This document shows, in pieces, positions 47,749-64,000 of a stretch of DNA of 64,000 bases (positions within the stretch are counted from its first letter, which is position 1; each line of letters starts with the position of its first letter). The position numbers and the translations under genes were made by a program. Source of the stretch: an uncultured delta proteobacterium (lineage in GTDB: Bacteria; Desulfobacterota; Binatia; UBA9968). The notes beneath the pieces were generated by a model. The model made no database searches. It was given only the letters and a program-made list of their open reading frames with translations, and was not told the DNA's origin. The stretch covers positions 32,001 through 96,000 of the forward strand of contig CAVUZH010000001.1 in assembly GCA_963745835.1 (NCBI GenBank), read 5' to 3'.

Positions 47749-49458
47749 ATGTTGCGCGAACTCCGGATTAAGAACTTTGCCATCATCGACGAGGTCGTTC
47801 TGCAACTTGGCCAGGGCCTTAACATCATTACCGGCGAAACCGGCGCAGGCAAATCGATTATCCTTAGCGCGTTGGGACTTATCTCCGGGGAGCGCGGCAG
47901 TTCGGAGATTATCAGACACAAAGAAGAGGAGGCCACAGTCGAAGCTTTATTCGAAACCGTGCCGCCAGCACTCAGCGCTGACTTAAGCGAAGCCGGTTTC
48001 GAGGTCGAAGGCGAACTGGTTATCAAGCGCATCCTCAACCGCTCGGGTAAAAACCGGATTTATTTAAACGGCAGTCTCTGTCCATTAGGCTTGCTCTCGC
48101 AGGTGGGCGCTTCTCTCGTGCACATCTACGGCCAGCACGAGCACCATACGTTGCTGCAGTCGGAAACCCACTTAAACCTGCTCGACGCTTTTGCTGATCT
48201 CGATGCCATGGCGAGATCCATGAAGCAGCGCTTCGAAGGCTTATCCCACGCCTGGAGCAGTCTGAATGATACCCGTGAGGCTTTGGAACAGCAGCGCCGG
48301 GAGAAAGCGCTCTTAGAAGCTCAGGCTGAAGAGATTGCCAAATCCGGCTTGAAGCCCGGCGAAGAAGAGGAGCTGCGCTCGAGCAGAAATATTCTGGCGC
48401 ACTCGGAAAGACTCTACCAGGGTTGTCGTGAAGGGGAGGAGATCCTTTACGAAGGGGAGTCCGCGCTCGTCGGCCGTTTGGGAAAATACGTCGGGAGGGC
48501 GCGCGAGTTGGCGGCCATTGATCAGGAATTGACCCCGACGTTTGAATTACTTGAATCTTCACTGGCGCAACTGCAAGAGGCGGCGTTACAACTGGGGCGT
48601 TATGCCGATCGAGTTCATTTTGATCCGCGCGCGCTGGAGCAACTCGATGATCGTCTCGCCGAGATTCAGCGTCTCAAACGCAAGTACAACGGCGATATCG
48701 AAGAGATTCTGCGCCTACAAACCGGGATTCAGGTCACATTGGAAAATCTGCAGCAAGGCGAAGCACAGATCCTGAACCTTGAAAAATCCTTTGAGGAGGC
48801 GCGTCAAGCCGCGTGGGACATGGCGGAGAAACTCTCCGGTGACAGGCAGCGCGCAGCCAAGAAATTAAAGCGGGAATTGGAAAAGGAAATCCGCGGGCTG
48901 GGAATGCCTGACACGGTATTCGAGGTGCGCTTCAGACGCCAGGATGAGGAAAACGACAATCCGCCGTTTTTCATTGCCGGTAAAAAACTTACCGAACGAG
49001 GTATGGATCAGGTTGAGTTTTATTTCTCGCCTAATCCCGGAGAACCGGTGAAACCTTTAGCCAAGATTGCTTCCGGCGGCGAACTCTCCCGGCTTATGCT
49101 CGCTCTCAAAGCACTAGTGCTCACCCCGGGTGTCGTCTCGACCCTTCTATTCGACGAAGTCGATACCGGAATCGGTGGCAGGGTGGCCGAGATCGTCGGA
49201 AAAAAGCTCAAGCAAGTGGCCGGTTTGCATCAAGTCATCAGCGTGACTCACCTGCCTCAGATCGCCGCGATGGCGGACTCTCATTATGTCGTGCGCAAAG
49301 AAGTTGATAACCGGCGAACCTTCACTCAGGTCGAGCGCCTTTCGGAAGCGGAGAGAGTCTCCGAGGTGGCGCGCATGCTGGGAGGCGTCAAAATTACCGA
49401 ACGAACCCTGCGTCACGCCGAAGAATTGATCGAGGCAACGGTGAAGACCAGATCATAA
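47749..49458 (+). CDS. recN: DNA repair protein RecN
   Basis: ITGETGAGKS, IYGQHE, ASGGELSR, FDEVDTGIGG, THLPQIA. Confidence 0.97.
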   Translation: MLRELRIKNFAIIDEVVLQLGQGLNIITGETGAGKSIILSALGLISGERGSSEIIRHKEEEATVEALFETVPPALSADLSEAGFEVEGELVIKRILNRSGKNRIYLNGSLCPLGLLSQVGASLVHIYGQHEHHTLLQSETHLNLLDAFADLDAMARSMKQRFEGLSHAWSSLNDTREALEQQRREKALLEAQAEEIAKSGLKPGEEEELRSSRNILAHSERLYQGCREGEEILYEGESALVGRLGKYVGRARELAAIDQELTPTFELLESSLAQLQEAALQLGRYADRVHFDPRALEQLDDRLAEIQRLKRKYNGDIEEILRLQTGIQVTLENLQQGEAQILNLEKSFEEARQAAWDMAEKLSGDRQRAAKKLKRELEKEIRGLGMPDTVFEVRFRRQDEENDNPPFFIAGKKLTERGMDQVEFYFSPNPGEPVKPLAKIASGGELSRLMLALKALVLTPGVVSTLLFDEVDTGIGGRVAEIVGKKLKQVAGLHQVISVTHLPQIAAMADSHYVVRKEVDNRRTFTQVERLSEAERVSEVARMLGGVKITERTLRHAEELIEATVKTRS

Positions 49459-49463
49459 AAGCT

Positions 49464-49617
49464 TAGCAGGGTGCTGAAAAAAAGCCTCTTGCAGGCTGCT
49501 TAAAAAGATCCAGAGGCCAGGCGCGCGAAAAATCGACGAGCGGAGGCGTACTACAGTACGTCGCAGCGAGGTGATTGAGCGGCAACGAAGCATATGGTCT
49601 TTTTCAGCAGCCTGTTA
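49464..49617 (+). mobile_element. MITE-like element, copy B (best preserved, doubled left end)
   Basis: Left TAGCAGGGTGCTGAAAAA plus inner CAGGCTGCTTAAAAAGA; right TCTTTTTCAGCAGCCTGTTA; bounded by TA. Confidence 0.85.
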
Positions 49618-49755
49618 GAGGAAAAAGTCATATCAGGGAGTTCGAGAAGGTTGTGAATTGCTGATTTGACTTTTGCGAATCGTTTATCGATATTACGAAG
49701 TACAATGGTGGTTAGCAGCAGAAATGCTCCGTCTTTTCCGCCTTAATCTTTTCGT

Positions 49756-49831
<76 letters not shown>

Positions 49832-50173
49832 AAAATCAATAACTCGCATGCCATTTAAATTCTCTCCACTTTCAAATTGTCCGTGTTCTGTCATTGATTG
49901 GCCCTTAACGCGACTATTTTCTCCGTAGTTTGATCCTCAACATGCATCTGCAGCTTCTCTGTGGTGGTTCTAGAGAGGCTGTGAATTTAAGCCGTTATTC
50001 TTCGTCCCTACACTCGAGCTTCATCAACCAGTCCCATATGCACAGAACTCGGTTATCGAAGTCTTTGCGCCGACAATCCCTTGAGTTTGCCTATTGTGCG
50101 GCACTCCCGAGATAACTCTGTTGGACTTTACCCTATCCTTTTTTCGCATGAAATCGTTATAGGAGAGGCAACC

Positions 50174-51202
50174 ATGACAATTTATCTCGGAACGATCAGG
50201 TGCGTACAAGATGCTTACAAAAGAATAGCGATGATTTTTCTGGCGCTTATGTTTTTACCTTCCCACGCATCCGGGCAATCTGTGCCAAAAATCCGCATGG
50301 CGTATACGTCAATCGCAATTCAGTTCACCCCAGTTTATTTGATGAAGGAGCTCGATCTCGGGCGAAAGCAGGGACTCGATGTAGAGATATTGATGATTCC
50401 GGTGAGCTCACGCGCGGTGCAGTCGGCTTTGGCTGGCGAACTTCATTTCATTACCAGCGGCGGTGTCGCTAACATCAACGCCAATATGGCCGGCGCCGAT
50501 TTTGTCGGCATCACATCAACGATCAATACGCTCGTTTATAAAATTCTAGCTCAACCCTCAATTAAAGAACCGGGACAGCTCAAGGGAAAGAAAATCGCCA
50601 TTTCACGGCTCGGCGGAGTTAGCGATTTCTCGGTGCGCTTCGGTCTTGACCGCTGGGGACTCGTGCCTGACAAAGACGCCGCTCTTATCCAGATCGGCGG
50701 CGATCCGGAAGCATACCTAGCGCTCCAAAACAAAGCTGTCGACGCCGCGGCTCTATCCGAGCCTTTCGCCACGATGGCGCAACGTGAAGGTTATTCTCTG
50801 GTTTCAGACCTGAGCCAGTTGAATATCCCTTTTACACATCATGGCATCGGCGCGCGCAAACAGCTGATCCGTGACCGTCGTGAGACTGCCGTGCGCTTCT
50901 TGCGCGCATATCTAGAAGGCATTTACGTTTTCAAGACCAATAAAGACTTGTCCCTAAAAACCTTCCAGAAAGTCGCGCGATTGAGCGATCTTTCCCTGGT
51001 TCAAAGCATTTACGACGACTATAGTCAGCGTCTAATCCCGGCCGTGCCATATCCCACTCCCGCTGGCATCCAAACCATCATCGACCAACTCGCAAAAACC
51101 CGCGCGCAAGCCAAGACTCTCAATCCCAACGACTTCATCGATGCATCCATCTTAAAAGAGATTGAAGACAGCGGCTTTATAAAGCGTTTGTATGGAAGAT
51201 AG
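50174..51202 (+). CDS. NMT1/THI5-like ABC substrate-binding protein
   Basis: GGAGAGG RBS; signal peptide; KQGLDVE, QLKGKKIAISRLG, VPYPT. Confidence 0.85.
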   Translation: MTIYLGTIRCVQDAYKRIAMIFLALMFLPSHASGQSVPKIRMAYTSIAIQFTPVYLMKELDLGRKQGLDVEILMIPVSSRAVQSALAGELHFITSGGVANINANMAGADFVGITSTINTLVYKILAQPSIKEPGQLKGKKIAISRLGGVSDFSVRFGLDRWGLVPDKDAALIQIGGDPEAYLALQNKAVDAAALSEPFATMAQREGYSLVSDLSQLNIPFTHHGIGARKQLIRDRRETAVRFLRAYLEGIYVFKTNKDLSLKTFQKVARLSDLSLVQSIYDDYSQRLIPAVPYPTPAGIQTIIDQLAKTRAQAKTLNPNDFIDASILKEIEDSGFIKRLYGR

Positions 51203-51487
51203 ATCGATCGCTCGGAGCACGTAGTGGGTTGAGCAAAACGGAAATGAGGCAGCGAAATAGCAGGGCTGAATGTTGTCCGATCTACGAAGGTAGCCAGCTC
51301 TGATGGTGGCAGCCGGCACCGCTTCTGAAGCCTCCCTAGTCATGTTGCTAATTTAACGAGCAGTAATTTACGTTCGTGTGGGTGTGCTCGGGTGTTTGAC
51401 CAATCATCGCTTTGAGCGATATAGCAAGTGCGTAACTTGATCTTCAGTTCATCTAGGAAAGCGGAGATAGAATTAAGGAGGTGCAAT

Positions 51488-51844
51488 ATGAGCCGGATCC
51501 GTCACATTGCTATCGTTACTTCGAACCAGGAAAAGCTGGGAAACTTTTACAAGACTGCTTTCGGAATGAAGGAGGTGAAGGGTATTGGGTCAGCACTTTA
51601 CCTTTCTGACGGATATATGAATCTCGCTATTATTAAGAAGACGCCTGAACTGAAGGTCGGCGAGGGCCTCTATCATTTCGGTTTCGAGGTAGACGATGTC
51701 GCGCCGCTTAGAGACGTTGTCAAAGAGGTCGGAGCTTCCAGTGAAGTACAACCTAGACCAAAAAATCGTGACGCTGAATTCAGGGTTCACGATCCGGATG
51801 GGAACGCCATCGATCTTGTATGCTCCAGGAAATGGCCCGTATAG
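51488..51844 (+). CDS. VOC/glyoxalase-family protein (copy 1)
   Basis: AAGGAGG RBS; RHIAI, YLSDG, GLYHFGFEV, DPDGNAIDL. Confidence 0.9.
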   Translation: MSRIRHIAIVTSNQEKLGNFYKTAFGMKEVKGIGSALYLSDGYMNLAIIKKTPELKVGEGLYHFGFEVDDVAPLRDVVKEVGASSEVQPRPKNRDAEFRVHDPDGNAIDLVCSRKWPV

Positions 51845-52044
51845 AAGGCTCGCGCTCGGATTATCGAGGACTGCACATCGGCCTGCGTTCTCGGGATCGA
51901 TCTCGCCATAACAGTTGACCCGGTAGAAGATGGTTGATGATAGCAAAGATACGCGGAGGGGATTGACCCGGCGGATAGCGATGCTCACCAGGAAATGTAG
52001 CTCAGAACTGCATGACAACTACAGTATTAGTAAGGAGGATTAAC

Positions 52045-52470
52045 ATGGGCGTTGAAATCATTGATCTAGTGGAACTCGCACGTCGAGAAAAACGTCGAAA
52101 GGTTGTGTTCAATACGCCACGTTGTCACGCATGGGTCCACTACTATCCGAATCCCGGCGAGAGAGACGACATGCATTGTCACAACGCGGATCAGACATTT
52201 TATGTCATTGACGGCGAATGCACCATGCATTTTCCTGATGGTGGCAAGGCGGTAATGAAGCCGGGAATGGTTGCCACCATTACCGGTGGATCCTTCTATC
52301 AATTGGAAAATAGCGGTGATGGCCCGATGATAATGATGGGCAATCGCTCCGGACCTTCTGAAGCTATCCAACACATCAACTATGAGCTTCGAAAGGACAT
52401 TAAAAAACTCAGCAAAGAGGAATTAGAGCGCGCCAATATCCCTCATATTTCGATGCAGGGAAGAAGTTAA
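52045..52470 (+). CDS. Cupin-domain protein
   Basis: AAGGAGG RBS; MHCHNADQTFYVIDG cupin motif 1 and KPG motif 2. Confidence 0.85.
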   Translation: MGVEIIDLVELARREKRRKVVFNTPRCHAWVHYYPNPGERDDMHCHNADQTFYVIDGECTMHFPDGGKAVMKPGMVATITGGSFYQLENSGDGPMIMMGNRSGPSEAIQHINYELRKDIKKLSKEELERANIPHISMQGRS

Positions 52471-52496
52471 TTGATCAAATGTTGCGGAGGTGTCCC

Positions 52497-53546
52497 ATGA
52501 AACCAGTAGCTATGGCTTGGCTTGGGATGTTTCTCGGGCTGATGCCGAATTTATCATGGGCCCAGCCGGATTTTTATCGAGGCAAACTGATTACGCTCAT
52601 CCAAGACAGCACGCCGGGTGGGGTGGGCCAGCTCCGAACCCAGGCATTGCTCCCTGTTTTGCAGAAGCACATTCCCGGTGAACCAAGGATCGTAATGCAG
52701 TTCATGCCAGGCGCTGGAGGCAGAACGGCTGCGAATCATCTTTACAACAATGCGCCGCGCGACGGCTTAACCATTGGTCGGGTGAGCAGTGGACTGGTAA
52801 CGTCTGCCATTCTCGGGCTGCCGGGCGTTCAATATGACATCAATAAACTGATTTACTTGGGCTCTGGTCACAACGAGGTAAACAACGTCTTTTTTTCACG
52901 GAGTCAACTCGGTCTGGATAACCTCAATAAACTCAGAGCAGCTACAGGGTTGAGGATCGGAGGACAGTCGGTTGGCCACTCCAACTATGTGATTGCCAGA
53001 CTTTTTGCATGGCTGCTTGATTTAAAAGAACCCCGGTTTGTGGTGGGCTTTTCCGGAGCGGAAATGGACGTAGCTCTCATGCAAGGCGAGCTGGATGCTC
53101 GCGCGAATAGTGCAGAAACCGTAGTTCAGCGTACGCCTCAATTCATTAACGAGCGACTTATGAACTTCCATGGTGTAGCCGAGATTCCGCACGGATATCG
53201 CTACAAGCATCCGGCCTTCGGCGAGCTCCCCGCACTGCACAGCTTTAGTAAGACTGACAAGGAAAAAAGAGTGCTGGATATGTTCGCTGCGTTCGGCCGT
53301 TTCAGCCAAGCTTTTGTTCTACCACCAGGCACTCCAAATGACCGGGTGAGAACTCTTAAAGACGCTTTCAGGAAGTCATGGAAAGACCCTGAATTTCATG
53401 CAAACTGGACAAAGATGACTCGTGCAGATCCTTCCCCTCTGATGCCCGAGGAGTTAGAAGAGCTAGTTAAAAATATCCCTAGAGACCCGGAAGACATTAA
53501 GCTTTACAACACGATCGCTGGAGCAGATCCCTTGCCGAGGCGGTAA
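52497..53546 (+). CDS. Bug/TctC-family periplasmic solute-binding protein
   Basis: Signal peptide; FYRGKLI, PGG, MPGAGG..AAN, PRDGLTIG, PPGTP. Confidence 0.85.
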   Translation: MKPVAMAWLGMFLGLMPNLSWAQPDFYRGKLITLIQDSTPGGVGQLRTQALLPVLQKHIPGEPRIVMQFMPGAGGRTAANHLYNNAPRDGLTIGRVSSGLVTSAILGLPGVQYDINKLIYLGSGHNEVNNVFFSRSQLGLDNLNKLRAATGLRIGGQSVGHSNYVIARLFAWLLDLKEPRFVVGFSGAEMDVALMQGELDARANSAETVVQRTPQFINERLMNFHGVAEIPHGYRYKHPAFGELPALHSFSKTDKEKRVLDMFAAFGRFSQAFVLPPGTPNDRVRTLKDAFRKSWKDPEFHANWTKMTRADPSPLMPEELEELVKNIPRDPEDIKLYNTIAGADPLPRR

Positions 53547-53623
53547 CGATGTTGGCACACTCTACCTCAATCGTTTTTGACGGTAGCGGCTTCGGTTAGA
53601 AATTACATGCAGGAGGATTGCAG

Positions 53624-53971
53624 ATGCCTAAGATTCGCCATATTGCTATCGTGAGTTCAAACCGTGAAAAGTTAGCAGAATTTTATAAACAAGCCTTCGG
53701 GATGAAACAGGTGCAAGGCGAAGGAGGTGCTATTTACTTGTCGGACGGTTCTATAAACCTCGCCCTGAACCCACACTATGCCGGACGAGAACCCGGTCTT
53801 TATCATTTTGGTTTTGAAGTCGAGGATCTCGACATTTTAAAAAAGAAGCTTAAAGAAGCGGGCGCAGGTAGCGAGGTTCAGAGGCGGCCGCGGAATCGAG
53901 AAGCCGAGTACCGGGTTCTCGACCCAGACGGTAATCCCATCGACCTTTCAACTCACGGCTGGCCAACCTAA
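53624..53971 (+). CDS. VOC/glyoxalase-family protein (copy 2)
   Basis: AGGAGG RBS; same motifs as copy 1. Confidence 0.9.
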   Translation: MPKIRHIAIVSSNREKLAEFYKQAFGMKQVQGEGGAIYLSDGSINLALNPHYAGREPGLYHFGFEVEDLDILKKKLKEAGAGSEVQRRPRNREAEYRVLDPDGNPIDLSTHGWPT

Positions 53972-54019
53972 TCACTTACCCGTGCTGACAAGAATGGATA
54001 TTCATGAAGGGAGGCGCAA

Positions 54020-54370
54020 ATGCCAAGAATACGTCATCTCGCAATCGTAAGTCCAAACCGAGAGCGTCTGGTAAATTTCTATACGACCGCCTTCGATATG
54101 AGAGTCGTCTATGGTCGCCCGACTAGCACACATCTTTCCGATGGAGATTTCAATTTAGCCATCGTCGATCAAAAACCTGACCTGAAGCCAGGACTCTATG
54201 TCCTCGGTTTTGATGTTGATGATCTCCACGACTTGGAAGGGAGCCTTAAGAAAGCCGGCGCCTCTTCAGAGCTTACACCGATGCCGAAGGACCATGATGC
54301 TGAGTTTAGAGTTCTTGATCCAGATGGGAACCACCTTGATCTCGCGATACATGGGTGGTGCGTTGTTTAG
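54020..54370 (+). CDS. VOC/glyoxalase-family protein (copy 3)
   Basis: GGGAGG RBS; RHLAI, HLSDG, DPDGNHLDL. Confidence 0.88.
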   Translation: MPRIRHLAIVSPNRERLVNFYTTAFDMRVVYGRPTSTHLSDGDFNLAIVDQKPDLKPGLYVLGFDVDDLHDLEGSLKKAGASSELTPMPKDHDAEFRVLDPDGNHLDLAIHGWCVV

Positions 54371-55048
54371 GACTTATACTCGAATCCTCCATAGCTCATC
54401 TGGTCAAACGTGTCTTTGTAGGTGGGCAATTCATTCCATTCATCATTGAGCAGATTATTCCCTGAAGAGATGGTCGACGAGGTTTGACCAATATATTTAA
54501 TGCTTCCAAGCAAACAGCCGGATCCGAAAATCAATGAGAAGAGATTTTCTTGGCAACCTTAGGTTTCTGATGGCAGTTTCTACCTTGAAAAAGTTGTTTG
54601 TGATCTGAAAGGACGATGGCGCCATGCCTTTGACGTGACCCTACCGCAACCGCAAAAGCAAAAAGTCCGTGTTAACGTCAGCGGCGGGCAGCAGCCAAAT
54701 AGCGTTATCCTTATTCTCAGCCAAACATCCCTGTGGCGTTGGCAGCGGTTTGTCCTTCGGCTCTGTGCATTGAAACAAACCGCTTGAAACAAAGACCAAC
54801 AAAACTAATAACAACAAGCAAAACATTTGGCCGGGATTCTCTATCTCAGCTAGTTCTGCTTTGCGCCACACACTGGGCAATGTGCAAACCACCGTCGAAT
54901 GCGCGACCGACATCGACGGCAAACATTTGTTCGACCGCGCCTGACCAAAAGCACGGACGTGACGACAAGGAGACCAGCAACTACAGTTGAGAACATTTTT
55001 TACCAACCATGCTCGCGCAACCAGAATCGTAAGAAGGCGACTATCTCC

Positions 55049-55198
55049 TCAGGTTGGCACCCTCCAGGCACTTCTTAGATCTACCCATGCTCTGGCCAGT
55101 GATAACCCATCTGCCTCCGCTTCTTCTTTTGTTTTGAATATCGTGCCCTCGATCCGTTGTAGCTCGATAACAGAAGCGTTAGACGAACACCAGAAGGG
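55049..55198 (-). pseudogene. Probable remnant of a small hypothetical gene
   Basis: Start-less frame reading SVIELQRIEGTIFKTKEEAEADGLSLARAWVDL..., protein-like. Confidence 0.35.
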
Positions 55199-55408
55199 TC
55201 AGACACGACGGCTTAATCCGAACAAGTTGTGATTTCGCATACGACGAAGCGATTTCGAACTCTGTTCGACGAATTACCAGCCGAAATCCGAAATCAAGCA
55301 CGACGGGCATACCGCCTGTTTCAAGACAACCCCAATCATCCCAGCCTACGTTTTAAGCCAATTCATGCCACGCAGCCCATCTATTCCGTGCGGATCAGGC
55401 AAGTTTAG

Positions 55409-55614
55409 GAGACTGGGAGACTCGGAAGACGAGACTGGGAGACGAAAGGACGAGATTGGGAGACGGAAGAGAGAGACTGGGAGATCTGAAGACTCGACGA
55501 ATCTCGATAACTCATTGGTCTCTATGAGTCCCTGAATCTCCATCAGTCTCCTTCTTAGACATCTCGATCAGTCTCGTTCTTAAACGTCTCAATCAATCTC
55601 AACGAATCTCAATC
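55409..55614. repeat. Bipartite GAGAC / RTCTC repeat array 1
   Basis: Four 21-22 bp units GAGAYTGGGAGAY... (55409, 55431, 55452, 55473), then opposite-sense units including 25-mers ATCTCSATCAGTCTCSTTCTTARAC (55536, 55561). Confidence 0.9.
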
Positions 55615-55676
55615 TGCTTGAGATCATTTAAGATCGGCTCCTGAACAGTAACAACCAGATCGCAAGCACAATGTGC

Positions 55677-55937
55677 TCAAGTTCCTAAAACGTCTTTATG
55701 AGTTCCAACGGCTGTAATGATAATGCGTGTTCCATCTCGAATATAGGTTGCCCTGTAGTTCATGGTGATGCTGAAGGCCCAGTGATCGGTACCCTTTAGT
55801 TTTTCATTTCTCAGACCAGGGTAGGATGGGTTGGCAATAAGTCTTTCTAGCTGATCCCAAAATTTTATTCTAACTTCTTTAGGAAGGGAATTGAGTATCT
55901 TAAGAACCGAATCAGGGATGACGATGTTAGTCGCCAA
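55677..55937 (-). CDS. RelE/ParE-superfamily toxin
   Basis: 86 aa; NPSYPGLRNEKLKG...FSITMNYRA...VGTH; overlaps the antitoxin stop. Confidence 0.8.
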   Translation of the reverse strand: MATNIVIPDSVLKILNSLPKEVRIKFWDQLERLIANPSYPGLRNEKLKGTDHWAFSITMNYRATYIRDGTRIIITAVGTHKDVLGT

Positions 55938-56202
55938 AGTGCTTCCGCGCCTCTTTCACCGATTTAAATGCCTTGAGCTTCCCCTTTTCTATGTTTTTTT
56001 TGGATCGGACAATCTGCTCCTGCCATTCCTTGCTCCAGAACCATGCCTGGTCCCTGGGAACCTCGATTATCGGGCGGATTACGATATTGCCTGCCTCCGC
56101 TATCACTTCCACGCGTTCTCCGACCTGCAAGGGAATTTTGGCTCGAACATCTTCGGGAATGGTAATCTGATACTTTTCCCTGACCTTAACGGTTGCGCCC
56201 AT
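55927..56202 (-). CDS. AbrB/MazE/SpoVT-family antitoxin
   Basis: KYQITIPEDVR..L..GE swapped-hairpin motif; DQAWFWSKEWQ tail. Confidence 0.88.
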   Translation of the reverse strand: MGATVKVREKYQITIPEDVRAKIPLQVGERVEVIAEAGNIVIRPIIEVPRDQAWFWSKEWQEQIVRSKKNIEKGKLKAFKSVKEARKHFGD

Positions 56203-56225
56203 AGCTTGTGACTCCTTTTCCGACC

Positions 56226-56275
56226 GTATTACTGTATTACTATACGATTTTATACAGCAGGTCTTTGCGGGTCAA
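56226..56275 (-). promoter_or_regulatory. TA operon promoter with tandem operator-like repeat
   Basis: Minus strand TTGACC-N17-TAAAAT, then AGTAATAC AGTAATAC direct repeat. Confidence 0.65.
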
Positions 56276-56278
56276 GCT

Positions 56279-56436
56279 GTCTCGTTCTTCGACATCTCAA
56301 TCAGTCGCCTTCTCAAACGTCTGAACGAGTCTCGTTCCTCAACAATCTCGATCTTAAAGTCTCAATGAGTCTCTCTCTGAAAGTCTCCACCAATCTCAGC
56401 CTTCGCCGAAAGGAATCTCCATGAGTCTCGTTCGAC
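56279..56436. repeat. RTCTC repeat array 2
   Basis: GTCTCGTTCTTCGAC, ATCTCAATCAGTCGCCTTCTCAAAC, GTCTGAACGAGTCTCGTTCCTCAAC and further RTCTC units; same 25-mer as 55536-55585. Confidence 0.88.
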
Positions 56437-57116
56437 TAACAACCGCGCTTGCGGCCAAGCGGCTTTTCGATATAACGGTCGCGGCTAACGCTCTGATATT
56501 TCTCTCGCCGCTGATCGGGCTGATTCTGTTGGCGATCAAATGGGATGACGGCAGGCCGGTATTTTTTGTTCAAGACCGGGTCGGCAGGGGACGGAAAAAT
56601 TTTCGCTGCTACAAGTTTCGCACGATGGTCATCGGCGCGGAGAATATGGGCAATAAAATGACGGTGACAGCGGATGACGAGCGCATCACACGGGTTGGGC
56701 GGCTCTTACGTAAGTGGACACTGGACGAGATTCCGCAGCTCTGGAATGTACTCAAAGGCGATATGAGCATCGTCGGGCCGCGACCGTGGGTGCCGAGCCA
56801 GGCGGCCTACTGCTCGGCAGAGGACGGCCGGCGCTTCGACTTTAAGCCTGGAATGGCGGGGTTGGCGTGGATTAATGGGCGCAATCGACTGCCTTGGGAT
56901 GAACGGGTTCGAATGGATCTTTGCTATGTCGATCACTGGTCGTTGTCGTTGGACTTCTCGATCTTACTAAAGGCGGCCGTGTTACTTTTTCGCCGCGACG
57001 GCGTTTACTTTCCGGAGGTCAGCGATGAGCAGGGAGTTAACAGCAAGAGCAACGAGCATGGAGCAAGGAGCGATGAGCTAAGACTTAGAAGTGAAACAGC
57101 TGGGGGTGAGACGTAG
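56421..57116 (+). CDS. Bacterial sugar transferase (undecaprenyl-phosphate phosphoglycosyl transferase, PglC/WcaJ C-domain-like)
   Basis: [47 protein letters not shown]. Confidence 0.92.
57021..57082. repeat. Degenerate heptamer tandem repeat (AGCRNNG-like, nine units)
   Basis: AGCGATG AGCAGGG AGTTAAC AGCAAG AGCAACG AGCATGG AGCAAGG AGCGATG AGCTAAG. Confidence 0.75.
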
Positions 57117-57140
57117 AGGTTAGGGTTAGGGCGATAGCTA

Positions 57141-57281
57141 GAGACTGGGAGACTTGGAGACTGTGAGATGCGAAGACGAGATTAAGAGGTTAGGAAATTC
57201 TCGCTTCGAAGCTGTCAATCTCAATGAATCTCGATCCTAATCTCAAGAAGTCTCAATTGATTTGCTCAGAGATCAGAGATC
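57141..57281. repeat. Bipartite GAGAC / RTCTC repeat array 3
   Basis: GAGACTGGGAGACTTGGAGACTGTGAGAT...GAGATT, then AATCTCAATG AATCTCGATCCT AATCTCAAG AAGTCTCAAT, then TCAGAGA x2. Confidence 0.85.
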
Positions 57282-57283
57282 GC

Positions 57284-57362
57284 GAACAGATTATTTAAAA
57301 ACACATATCGCAAGCTGCTCAAAAAGAGCTCAGATGCGCAGCGCGCGAAGAAGCGACGAGCT
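57284..57362 (+). mobile_element. MITE-like element, copy D (left half only)
   Basis: CAAGCTGCTCAAAAAGAGCTCAGATGCGCAGCGCGCGAAGAAGCGACGAGCT matches the left halves of copies B and C. Confidence 0.7.
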
Positions 57363-57382
57363 AGTGAGCGGCTGGATAGCTG

Positions 57383-57443
57383 TTAGGTTTTGGGTATTCG
57401 GTAGTTCGGAAATTCAATACCCAAGACCCAGAACCGGAGAACC
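57383..57443. repeat. Heptamer-based hairpin
   Basis: TTAGGTT TTGGGTA TTCGGTA ... TACCCAA GACCCAG AACCGGA; GGTTTTGGGTATT pairs with AATACCCAAGACC. Confidence 0.7.
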
Positions 57444-57465
57444 AAAGAAAGAGAGGAAAGACATT

Positions 57466-58646
57466 GTGGCGGACGTTGACATCATCGGTGGTTCGGCAGC
57501 AGGACTTTTTGCAGCATATCTACTCGCGCGAGAAGGCAAGCGGGTACGGCTCTTCGATGCAAATGATGTGTTGAATGTCGAATCGCGAACCTTGATAACC
57601 ACATCGCGGCTCACAGATGTATTAGAGTTTTTTCCAGAAGAGGCCGTGGTCAATGAAATCGATCAGATCGACCTTCACTCTCCCGGTCGATCAGTGACGA
57701 TCCTGATGAAGGAACCGGACCTGGTTGTCGAGCGATCAGCGGTGGTCCGGTTGCTGGCCAGGAAAGCGCGTGATGCCGGGGTAGAAATTCGCCCGGGCTG
57801 CAAACTGGTCGATTTCAAGCCGAATGATCAAGGCTCTACGATAACTATTCGAGATACGCATCAGCAGATCTTCGAGAAATTCAAAACCAGAATTTTGATC
57901 GGCGCAGACGGCACGTCGAGCAGGGTCGCCAAGACCGCAATCGGCAATGGTCACGCGACGACGCCGCTGCTCCAAGCGGTCGTCGAGCTCCCCAGCGGCT
58001 GGCGCGCGGGTACGACCCAAGTGTGGTTTGAGCCTGAGGATACGCCGTACTTCTATTGGATGATCCCGCAATCGCCGACTCACGCAGCGATTGGCTTCAT
58101 CGCTGAGGAAGGAAAAAGTGCCAGGAGCAAGCTCGAACGATTTTTGAATCGAATCGGATTTAAACCTGTGGAGATCCAGTCTGCGCGCATACCGTGCTAC
58201 TCACATAGAATGCAGCCGTGGCGCCGCATATCGGGTTGTCAAGTTTATCTCGTTGCCGATGCGGCGGCGCAGGTCAAAGTGACGACAGTGGGCGGACTGG
58301 TCACCGGACTCCGCGGAGCCAAGGCTGCAGCTAGTGCAATTCTAGGATGCAGAGATTACGCAAAGGAACTGAGGTCGCTGCGGCGAGAGCTGAGCCTCAT
58401 CTGCTGATCCGGAGGGTTTTGAACCGGTTCCAGGGCGCGGATTACGACCGGCTTCTCGGTTTGTTAAACGAAAAGACCATCCACTTGTTGGGCAGATACA
58501 ACCGCGACCAGGCGGCTAGCATCGTATGCCGCATCCTTCTTGCGCAGCCGCGATTTATAAGTCTGGCGGCCGTGTTGTCGCGAAAAGAAATAACTGAGCC
58601 TTACAGGAACGGTTATAAGTCAACAGACGCCAGACTTGATGCGTAG
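57466..58646 (+). CDS. Geranylgeranyl reductase-like FAD-dependent oxidoreductase; apparent frameshift near 58398
   Basis: DIIGGSAAG, LIGADG, FYWMIP, VADAAAQVK..GG; C-terminus continues in the 58347 ORF frame. Confidence 0.8.
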
Positions 58647-58706
58647 TTTGGTGTATCCGAAGGTGACGATTTCGCACTAAGGCACCTGGTAATCGCATTT
58701 TGACCG

Positions 58707-58740
58707 GCCCGGCTGGGGAGTCCTCCAGACCGGGCTTTTT
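58707..58740 (+). terminator. Intrinsic terminator
   Basis: GCCCGG-CTGG...CCAG-A-CCGGGC followed by T5. Confidence 0.7.
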
Positions 58741-58837
58741 AATTTCAGCGATCAGCCGGTTCAAAAGTGTCGGAGGCCCGAGTGTCCGCATCAACGAACG
58801 CGGTGAGCTGGTCGTAAGCTTTAGTTTTCCTAGCTCG

Positions 58838-63748: not shown

Positions 63749-64000
63749 GTGAAGGTTAGGATCTATAAAACATCTGAGCCGGGCTATCGCTCTCTGATCA
63801 GGCGAATTCTTGCGCGGCGTGGCGGTCGTCAAGGCGACATCGAGCAGCGCGTCAATGAGATCATCCGGATAGTGCAGCAACAAGGCGATCGCGCGGTGCT
63901 GCGTTACACTCAGGAATTTGACCAGAGGCGCATGACTCGCGCCAGCATGGAAGTCACAGCTGGTGAAATCGACCGGGCGATGGGCAAAGTGCCTGCCAAG
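63749..64000 (+). CDS. hisD: Histidinol dehydrogenase, N-terminus (truncated by window end)
   Basis: Manual translation from GTG: ...VNEIIRIVQQQGDRAVLRYTQEFD..., typical of the HisD N-terminus; follows murA. Confidence 0.8.
   Translation, partial: MKVRIYKTSEPGYRSLIRRILARRGGRQGDIEQRVNEIIRIVQQQGDRAVLRYTQEFDQRRMTRASMEVTAGEIDRAMGKVPAK

Follow-up and report, generated by a model that had tools for sequence, protein, structure and literature searches.

What are the short GAGAY and RTCTC repeats that surround a toxin-antitoxin (TA) gene pair and a sugar transferase gene in an uncultured delta proteobacterium (GTDB lineage Bacteria; Desulfobacterota; Binatia; UBA9968), and do they serve to move genes? 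The stretch that we analyzed, called the window here, is 64,000 nucleotides (nt) of contig CAVUZH010000001.1 (assembly GCA_963745835.1, positions 32,001 to 96,000), and uncontigged coordinates below are window positions. A first-pass annotation had suggested that the repeats may be signals, for recombination or as single-stranded DNA (ssDNA) hairpins, of a so far undescribed system that captures and shuffles TA and surface-polysaccharide genes, with its enzyme supplied in trans. Above all, our analysis corrects that reading: the repeats do not amount to evidence for an integron-like machine that captures such genes. We favor, with moderate confidence, the view that the GAGAY/RTCTC blocks belong to a wider class of polar, inverted arrays of short units characteristic of the family of uncultured soil bacteria from which the DNA comes. 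For PrfA, the label most frequent in the nearest Atlas cluster is Candidatus Binatota.

Inspection of the letters, open reading frames (ORFs) and Pfam profiles placed the arrays and the genes in the positions and the order first reported. Arm F1 (55409-55493, plus strand, 78% purine) has eight GAGAY cores (55409-55485) in steps of 8 and 13-14 nt with a 21-nt super-period, and it is followed by arm R1 (55501-55614, plus strand), with nine RTCTC cores (55501-55610) in steps of 10 and 15 nt and a 25-nt super-period. Arm R2 (56279-56433, plus strand), on the other side of the TA pair, has ten RTCTC cores (56279-56429), and its end covers the first codons of the gene for the sugar transferase. Arm F3 begins at the stop codon of this gene (57108-57190, plus strand; one GAGAY core at 57108 and five at 57141-57182 in 8-nt steps), followed by arm R3 (57215-57258, plus strand; four RTCTC cores at 57218-57254 in 10-12-nt steps), so that five GAGAY/RTCTC arrays are packed into 1.9 kb. 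Tandem Repeats Finder returned a period of 21 for F1 (4.0 copies, 79% matches), 25 for R1 (2.6 copies, 85% matches) and 24 for R2, bearing out the 21/25-bp higher-order form described earlier; over all GAGAY/RTCTC arrays the periods were 8, 10, 13, 21, 24, and 25. We then scanned the whole genome under study (G000; 7,276,699 bases in 25 contigs) for chains, defined as five or more GAGAY/RTCTC cores with gaps of up to 30. Only 5 chains were found, 4 of them at this locus and 1 at C22:75112, and 25 of 40 random degenerate pentamers used as a control yielded no such chain in the genome, confirming that the arrays are far beyond chance.

The genome's main version of this architecture is built from other units. 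Far more abundant than GAGAY is the array (GTTCMANNN)x4, whose unit is GTTCCANNN or GTTCAANN, usually in exactly four copies, and the element that it forms consists of four forward units, a variable spacer and four reverse-complement units (for example C14:286431-286541, C18:206724-206873, and C24:267132-267212). The polarity is strict: among 140 GTTCMA groups in G000, 21 were forward-then-reverse pairs (within 200 nt) and 0 were reverse-then-forward, and both window pairs, F1-R1 and F3-R3, have the forward-then-reverse order as well. Spacers of 19 paired groups differed fully in sequence and length. With stop codons taken from ORFs called by a crude gene finder, 40 of 101 arms begin no more than 30 nt after a sense-strand stop codon, and many of the genes so followed are binding-protein genes. 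Exact (GTTCMANNN)x4 arrays occur in 23 of 24 family genomes and in none of 16 genomes of two sister families (reversed control pattern: 0/41); G024 lacks GTTCMA arms. At three orthologous intergenic sites, all of the same-genus relatives that have both flanks (8/8) carry a forward-reverse element between flanks that are 80-97% identical. The elements themselves differ in core subtype and variable positions, and their spacers are not homologous; conservation thus extends to the architecture and not to the sequence, which turns over. Two contigs of a relative, G004:C228 and G004:C293, end at or beside a GTTCMA forward-reverse element. Arrays of this kind break short-read assemblies, so that counts in fragmented genomes are probably underestimates.

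The unit vocabulary of the window is likewise shared. The four-core GAGAY pattern (GGAGACNN arrays) is present in 24 of 81 family genomes, including G000 and the unpublished G018 and G063, as against 3 of 81 for the reversed control pattern. The array neighbors that were read in relatives, a part of the whole, are genes for MFS transporters, TamB with an M48 peptidase, a TetR regulator, cobalamin adenosyltransferase with an SDR reductase, an NMT1 binding protein and a fused ABC ATPase. These are unrelated housekeeping genes, and a dedicated action on TA and surface-polysaccharide genes was therefore not upheld. The fused ABC ATPase, which is YbhF-like, has the arrays inside its gene: in 8 of 10 genomes examined (G000 among them; G003 and G014 are the two without) the interdomain linker is made of (GGAGACNN)n followed by (NNGTCTCC)n, in frame (G000 C25:23646-25610; orthologs L123 and L134-L141). 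The arrays encode stretches such as ETRRQGD and SLSPSLPVS, and open frames of 621-855 aa run through them; judged from these frames, repeat DNA has here been turned into a protein linker. G000, G004, and G006 share an alignable, partly decayed version of the linker arrays, which are therefore vertically inherited and old.

Arrays of this class also stand around small genes of one particular family. Genes of PF05635, the protein family of 23S-rRNA intervening sequences (IVSs), which is Avd-like, were found in 23 of 24 family genomes; PF05635 is described as resembling Avd of diversity-generating retroelements (PMC10053308). Four of the five copies in G000 lie visibly between inverted short-unit arrays, with a different vocabulary at each (C14:12386-12907, C8:131500-132290, C23:59540-59990, and C15:235990-236680), and at one of them a forward and a reverse arm precede the gene and a second reverse arm follows it, which is the order around the TA pair of the window. 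The genes of the first two of these loci are at C14:12522-12854 and C8:131722-132096. To quantify such bracketing we scored the 6-mers of the left flank that recur in the reverse-complemented right flank, with a threshold of z 3.8. Of 28 PF05635 loci (two more at contig edges were dropped), 10 had a z of at least 3.8, compared with 2 each among 300 random and 300 small genes of G000; on the same score the TA pair of the window had a z of 4.2 and the transferase a z of 2.2. In G059 (C147 3440-4045; L117), a PF05635 gene with a GAGAC arm before it and a GTCTC arm after it occupies exactly the space between hlyD and ybhF. In G001 hlyD and ybhF overlap, and the two genomes thus present a filled site and an empty site. 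An unbiased search, in which both flanks of a gene had to share a 5-mer occurring three or more times on each side, returned 81 inverted and 94 direct cases among 6755 genes, which is background, and was set aside. Strict exact 6-mer chains gave 30 inverted pairs, nearly all of them GTTCMA, and missed the degenerate arrays around PF05635 genes.

The TA pair itself has the features of a type II module, in that small antitoxin and toxin genes with family matches are adjacent, the toxin matches being below cut-off. The ParE-family toxin gene (55677-55937, minus strand, 86 aa; PF05016 18.8 bits, PF24732 17.8 bits, both below cut-off) overlaps by 11 nt the gene for an AbrB/MazE-type antitoxin (55927-56202, minus strand, 91 aa; PF04014 33.8 bits, above the cut-off of 24.7). 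In the promoter region of the pair is a twofold repeat of GTATTACT (56226-56241), which is likely the operator of the module itself and from which the pair appears to have its own promoter region. Homologous pairs are kept as a unit, at 74-76% DNA identity, in the unrelated contexts of G033, G022, and G010, where they stand without GAGAC/RTCTC arrays and with their own GTAATAC-type repeat near the promoter; in G022 a repeat similar to GTATTACT lies upstream.

These observations bear on the idea that the arrays are operator- or iteron-like sites through which a regulator (an AbrB-type antitoxin, a ribbon-helix-helix protein or a response regulator) controls the TA operon and the transferase. 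R2 indeed fills the divergent promoter region between antitoxin and transferase genes, up to the transferase start codon, and the RTCTC cores are 10 nt apart, about one helical turn. The arms, as measured on GTTCMA arrays, also share cores and not variable positions, as arrays of sites would. However, the homologous TA pairs do without the arrays and have the GTAATAC-type repeat that is also found here at 56226-56241, the transferase ortholog of G006 has no such arrays upstream, and GAGAC arrays elsewhere lie after stop codons or within coding linkers. We consider local operator control quite improbable.

Comparison with the same-genus genome G006 revealed how the locus differs between species. 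On contig G006:C12 the transferase ortholog is 90% identical and the downstream region is syntenic to the end of the window; upstream of it lie a glycosyltransferase and a carbamoyltransferase gene instead, without the TA pair and without GAGAC arrays, and short-unit arrays of other units take the corresponding position downstream of it. G000 has no close counterparts of these upstream genes (best match 47% identical). A second contig, G006:C21, matches the upstream flank of the window at 95-97% and has unrelated sequence in place of window positions ~54891-57737; in both G006:C21 and G004:C306 the sequence is unrelated after the equivalent of ~54890-55002. Given these differences, the locus is a gene-turnover spot, bordering a region in which species of the genus differ in gene content. 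The check for cassette gain or loss with junctions in the repeats, proposed earlier, gave a divided answer: one break in synteny, that with G006:C12, coincides with the end of arm R2, and the remaining junctions of the variable region in the G006 and G004 comparisons do not map to arrays. We noticed that G006 has two versions of the downstream region, C12 being 94% identical to the window as far as position 64000 and C21 77-89% identical as far as ~60129. The cause is either a segmental duplication or the presence of two strains in one bin (listed contamination 6%). On G006:C12 (L009, 8739-9614) the frames break after ~78 aa in the sugar transferase and after ~219 aa in the upstream glycosyltransferase; this may be real decay or assembly error.

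Within the species the arrays appeared stable. Contigs from three independent soil or rhizosphere studies span them (F1-R1: 55330-55637; R2: 56226-56448 and 55927-56643; F3-R3: 56630-57340, 57013-57450, and 57089-57250) without differing letters, indels or joints. The circles and inversions that shuffling would leave were not seen, nor were length variants, in the contigs of the three studies; since contigs drop rare variants, this agreement means stability and is not proof that rare rearrangements are absent. The contigs of runs X10 and X13 cover the locus in part, and their gaps carry no meaning as absence. One soil RNA-library run yielded three 151-nt contigs at the locus (55577-55727, 55913-56062, and 56179-56329), which show no ends and may derive from DNA carry-over.

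How, then, does the proposed capture system fare? It has support: the TA module sits between two direct copies of an RTCTC arm and within an inverted bracket, a site filled in G059 by a PF05635 gene with GAGAC and GTCTC arms is empty in G001, the break in synteny with G006:C12 falls at the end of R2, and there are candidate enzymes elsewhere in the genome, where profile searches gave 13 tyrosine recombinase (PF00589) and 12 Y1 (HUH) transposase (PF01797) hits. None of either kind lies in the window, the nearest tyrosine recombinase being at C1:121450, ~32 kb from the locus; the earlier statement that the window lacks an integrase and a transposase agrees with these counts, cas genes and DDE transposases not having been searched for. 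The Y1 transposases were considered as the mobilizing enzyme and set aside, as the 8 loci (of 12) whose flanks were read look like ordinary insertion-sequence-like copies with their own ends. None of these 8 is bracketed by GAGAC or GTTCMA arms; at one locus a TTGAAC arm lies ~210 nt downstream. Two Y1-transposase-like genes with long C-terminal extensions follow tandem arrays of their own in G000 (C20:77381-77451 and C13:630784-630836; a 20-mer x3.5 with 96% matches, and GGGATAT units), which could be their cognate repeats.

The ssDNA-hairpin part of the proposal was not supported by folding, since against 200 dinucleotide shuffles the single-stranded DNA folds of F1-R1 (z -1.03) and F3-R3 (z +0.28) were no better. 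We recognized no attC-like R''-L''/L'-R' core organization at the locus, no attC scan being made, and the PF00589 profile search showed no intI, nor were attI or Pc found near the locus. Nor are there several promoterless cassettes in a common orientation: the TA pair lies on the minus strand, and the transferase, on the plus strand, is outside the brackets. The term cassette-like is partly right, in that the TA pair is bracketed; the downstream synteny of the transferase is kept in G006. Together with the diverse housekeeping genes flanked in relatives, the absence of joints, circles and inversions from contigs that drop rare variants, and the vertically inherited, slowly decaying linker arrays, these results make an undescribed capture system for TA and surface-polysaccharide genes very improbable. 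What stands is that small accessory genes are bracketed in the family; what is not shown is a dedicated capture of TA and polysaccharide genes. Three outcomes had been named beforehand as speaking against the system (repeats only here or at random intergenic sites, stable synteny of the flanked genes, no junction in the repeats), and on these the result is mixed, leaning against it.

A plainer account is that the arrays are a neutral mutational scar, built up by local tandem duplication and slippage in a non-coding gap that rearrangement had left at the edge of a polysaccharide cluster, with no function and no mobility, and that their likeness to other arrays is a lineage tendency. The 25-nt RTCTC form fits this, as it was found in 1 of 81 family genomes (G000), solely at this locus, and could be a plain local tandem duplication. 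So do the turnover at the spot, with unrelated sequence in G006:C21 and G004:C306, the upstream genes of G006:C12 without a close counterpart in G000, the arrays of other units that G006 has in the same place downstream of the transferase, and the folds that do not exceed shuffles. A scar does not, however, explain why both window pairs and 21 of 21 GTTCMA pairs run forward-then-reverse, why GTTCMA arms hold at four units, why the architecture is retained in 8 of 8 relatives at orthologous sites despite turnover, or why inverted flanks are enriched at PF05635 genes (10/28 vs. 2/300). Slippage-prone tracts would moreover be expected to vary in length, and no such variation was seen in the three independent studies. 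A scar is possible in our judgment, and we doubt it.

We therefore return to the reading of the arrays as members of a polar array class. In this account an element consists of a forward arm of evenly spaced short cores, a non-conserved spacer and a reverse arm with complementary cores, and the spacer can be a few bases or a small accessory gene. The window holds two cargo-less elements, F1-R1 and F3-R3, each starting at the stop codon of a gene. The ParE/AbrB module may have landed in, or recombined into, an RTCTC arm, with ~60 nt of the arm duplicated as R2; the first ~60 nt of R2 and positions 55539-55600 of R1, which flank the module, are ~79-80% alike over ~55-62 nt. The arms might be sites for a sequence-specific protein or halves of an RNA stem at transcript 3' ends, and in the latter case they would be similar to the way in which the complementary ends of 23S-rRNA IVSs flank their S23p ORF. 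For six GTTCMA pairs without cargo, the RNA minimum-energy folds join 21-28 of the 33 bases of the forward arm to the reverse arm, compared with means of 4-13.5 paired bases in controls with a shuffled reverse arm. RNA stem and protein-site array are both possible for the arms. The elements would spread as selfish or weakly useful DNA and not through dedicated gene capture.

Several observations weigh against this account. The variable positions of two GTTCMA arms at the same locus are alike in 48 of 152 cases, compared with 772 of 2351 between different loci; arms at one locus are no more alike than arms across loci, which weakens the stem reading and favors arrays of sites. In the window the RNA fold pairs 62 of 85 bases for F1-R1 against a shuffled-arm maximum of 61, and 21 against 25 for F3-R3, and the DNA folds gave no advantage either. 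The step is 8 (and 13) nt in GAGAY arms and 10 (and 15) nt in RTCTC arms, and the arms are therefore not simple inverted copies or mirror images of each other, despite the shared core. About two-thirds of the GTTCMA groups are single arms, no target-site duplications were seen by inspection, and the closeness of arms to stop codons may merely follow from short intergenic spaces. No trans-acting protein was found, the flanks of 8 of the 12 Y1 loci showing no consistent link to arrays, and the 25-nt RTCTC form is private to this locus.

A more specific version of the account can be put forward tentatively. The family may carry an undescribed non-autonomous element bounded on both sides by polar arrays of evenly spaced short cores to which a protein would bind (GTTCMA nonamers, four of them, in the common type and GGAGAC octamers in the window), which settles at gene 3' ends and may carry small cargo, namely Avd-like PF05635 four-helix-bundle genes or, in the window, the ParE/AbrB module. 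Its arms would be recognized by the PF05635 protein or by another lineage-specific factor, the locus would be a cargo-bearing copy beside a solo copy, and turnover would reflect re-targeting of the same gene ends. We think this full scheme unlikely as it stands.

The remaining features of the locus complete the picture. Upstream of F1 is a fragment of a ParE-like toxin gene (55229-55408, plus strand, 59 aa), which matches PF24732 at profile positions 2-40 of 67 with 20.9 bits, below the cut-off of 24.4; its TAG stop is at 55406-55408 and the first GAGAC core begins at the next base. The bacterial sugar transferase (Bac_transf, E 5.9e-63; 56421-57116, plus strand, 231 aa, stop codon at 57114-57116) has a C-terminal tail (57021-57087) that is encoded by short repeats of AGCAAGG/GAGCA type, which G006 has too; in this gene as well, repeat DNA lengthens the frame. 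In one scan of genome contigs, a search with the transferase returned distant relatives only, from many phyla and at most 50% identical. A gene for an FAD-dependent oxidoreductase, annotated by profile and ORF, starts at 57466 on the plus strand. Two structures between R3 and this gene had been described as half of a miniature inverted-repeat transposable element (MITE) and as a heptamer hairpin. The former is a partial copy (57297-57361) of a dispersed 155-nt MITE and is outside the GAGAC system; a full copy with 24-nt terminal inverted repeats (88% complementary) lies at 49464-49621, ~135 nt upstream of a tRNA gene (49756-49828), and each same-genus genome searched has many copies. The latter is a GGTNNNN/NNNNACC inverted repeat (57386-57428) with 13-nt arms that are 92% complementary, a small forward-reverse element of a different unit vocabulary. 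The non-coding DNA that precedes the ParE-like fragment holds a second dispersed repeat of ~150 nt (54850-55002), of which G001, G004, G005, and G006 have copies. Rfam searches over 54300-58800 and 49300-55100 gave no match at the arrays and only the tRNA at 49756-49828.

What remains is a regular repeat architecture, undescribed as far as we searched, in a large family of uncultured soil bacteria, with tens of copies per genome. If the arms are protein sites or RNase III stems, they would offer a handle on IVS-type selfish inserts outside rRNA and on the function of stand-alone Avd-like proteins. As a practical matter, the arrays break short-read assemblies.

We found no published description of these arrays in a literature search made mostly without subscription journals and supplements, and one source states that repeats of 6-9 nt are rarely reported in bacteria (PMC4692102). 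The locus lacks tested defining features of integrons, cyanobacterial short tandemly repeated repetitive (STRR) sequences, repetitive extragenic palindromic (REP) elements and MITEs, in line with the earlier view that the repeats differ from attC sites and STRR. The likeness to integron cassettes is that the stop codon of the preceding gene marks where the repeat element begins, and that such elements enclose some small genes; the difference is that the locus has no intI, attI or Pc nearby and no co-oriented promoterless cassette run, and that it folds no better than shuffles. MITE copies share their internal sequence, whereas the spacers here differ, both among the 19 paired groups and at orthologous sites. 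STRR sequences are tandem heptanucleotide units. The present arrays are also degenerate, short-unit, intergenic and lineage-typical, but their units are of 8-10 nt with 21/25-nt super-periods and not heptamers, the arms are polar and form inverted pairs, and the GTTCMA type holds at four units. REP elements and their paired form, REPIN, are short, extragenic, lineage-abundant repeats, often in inverted pairs with a less conserved spacer and mostly at gene 3' ends, and a REP is an imperfect palindrome. The present arrays are likewise extragenic, abundant in their lineage, paired in inverted orientation and mostly at gene 3' ends; they differ in that their arms are direct arrays of one core orientation, their spacers share no sequence and, in the flanks of 8 of the 12 Y1_Tnp loci, no consistent link to them was found (REP/REPIN elements are treated in PMC3116915).

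Repeat DNA is tolerated in frame in the ABC-ATPase linker, as it is in another known case, and the present arrays share short cores only. That case is the Rickettsia palindromic elements, copies of one consensus of roughly 100-150 nt that are inserted in frame in genes. Ribbon-helix-helix operators, such as those of omega of pSM19035 and ParG of TP228, are runs of 7-8-bp units, direct and inverted, at plasmid promoters or centromeres. The present arrays are also runs of short units in direct and inverted orientation, but are chromosomal, number tens per genome, lie mostly after stop codons and have no cognate protein that we could find. The 23S-rRNA IVSs of, for example, Coxiella burnetii and Leptospira are described as selfish inserts whose complementary termini form a stem around the S23p ORF and which are cut out by RNase III (PMC4990558). 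The elements described here are not in rRNA, their arms are 3-10 short units as opposed to the 28-bp near-perfect stem given for an IVS, the arm vocabulary varies by locus, and the elements of the window carry a TA pair or no cargo, and not a PF05635 gene. The likeness is that IVS inserts are tolerated in a transcribed region (PMC4990558), and that the PF05635 genes of this family are also bordered by inverted arms.

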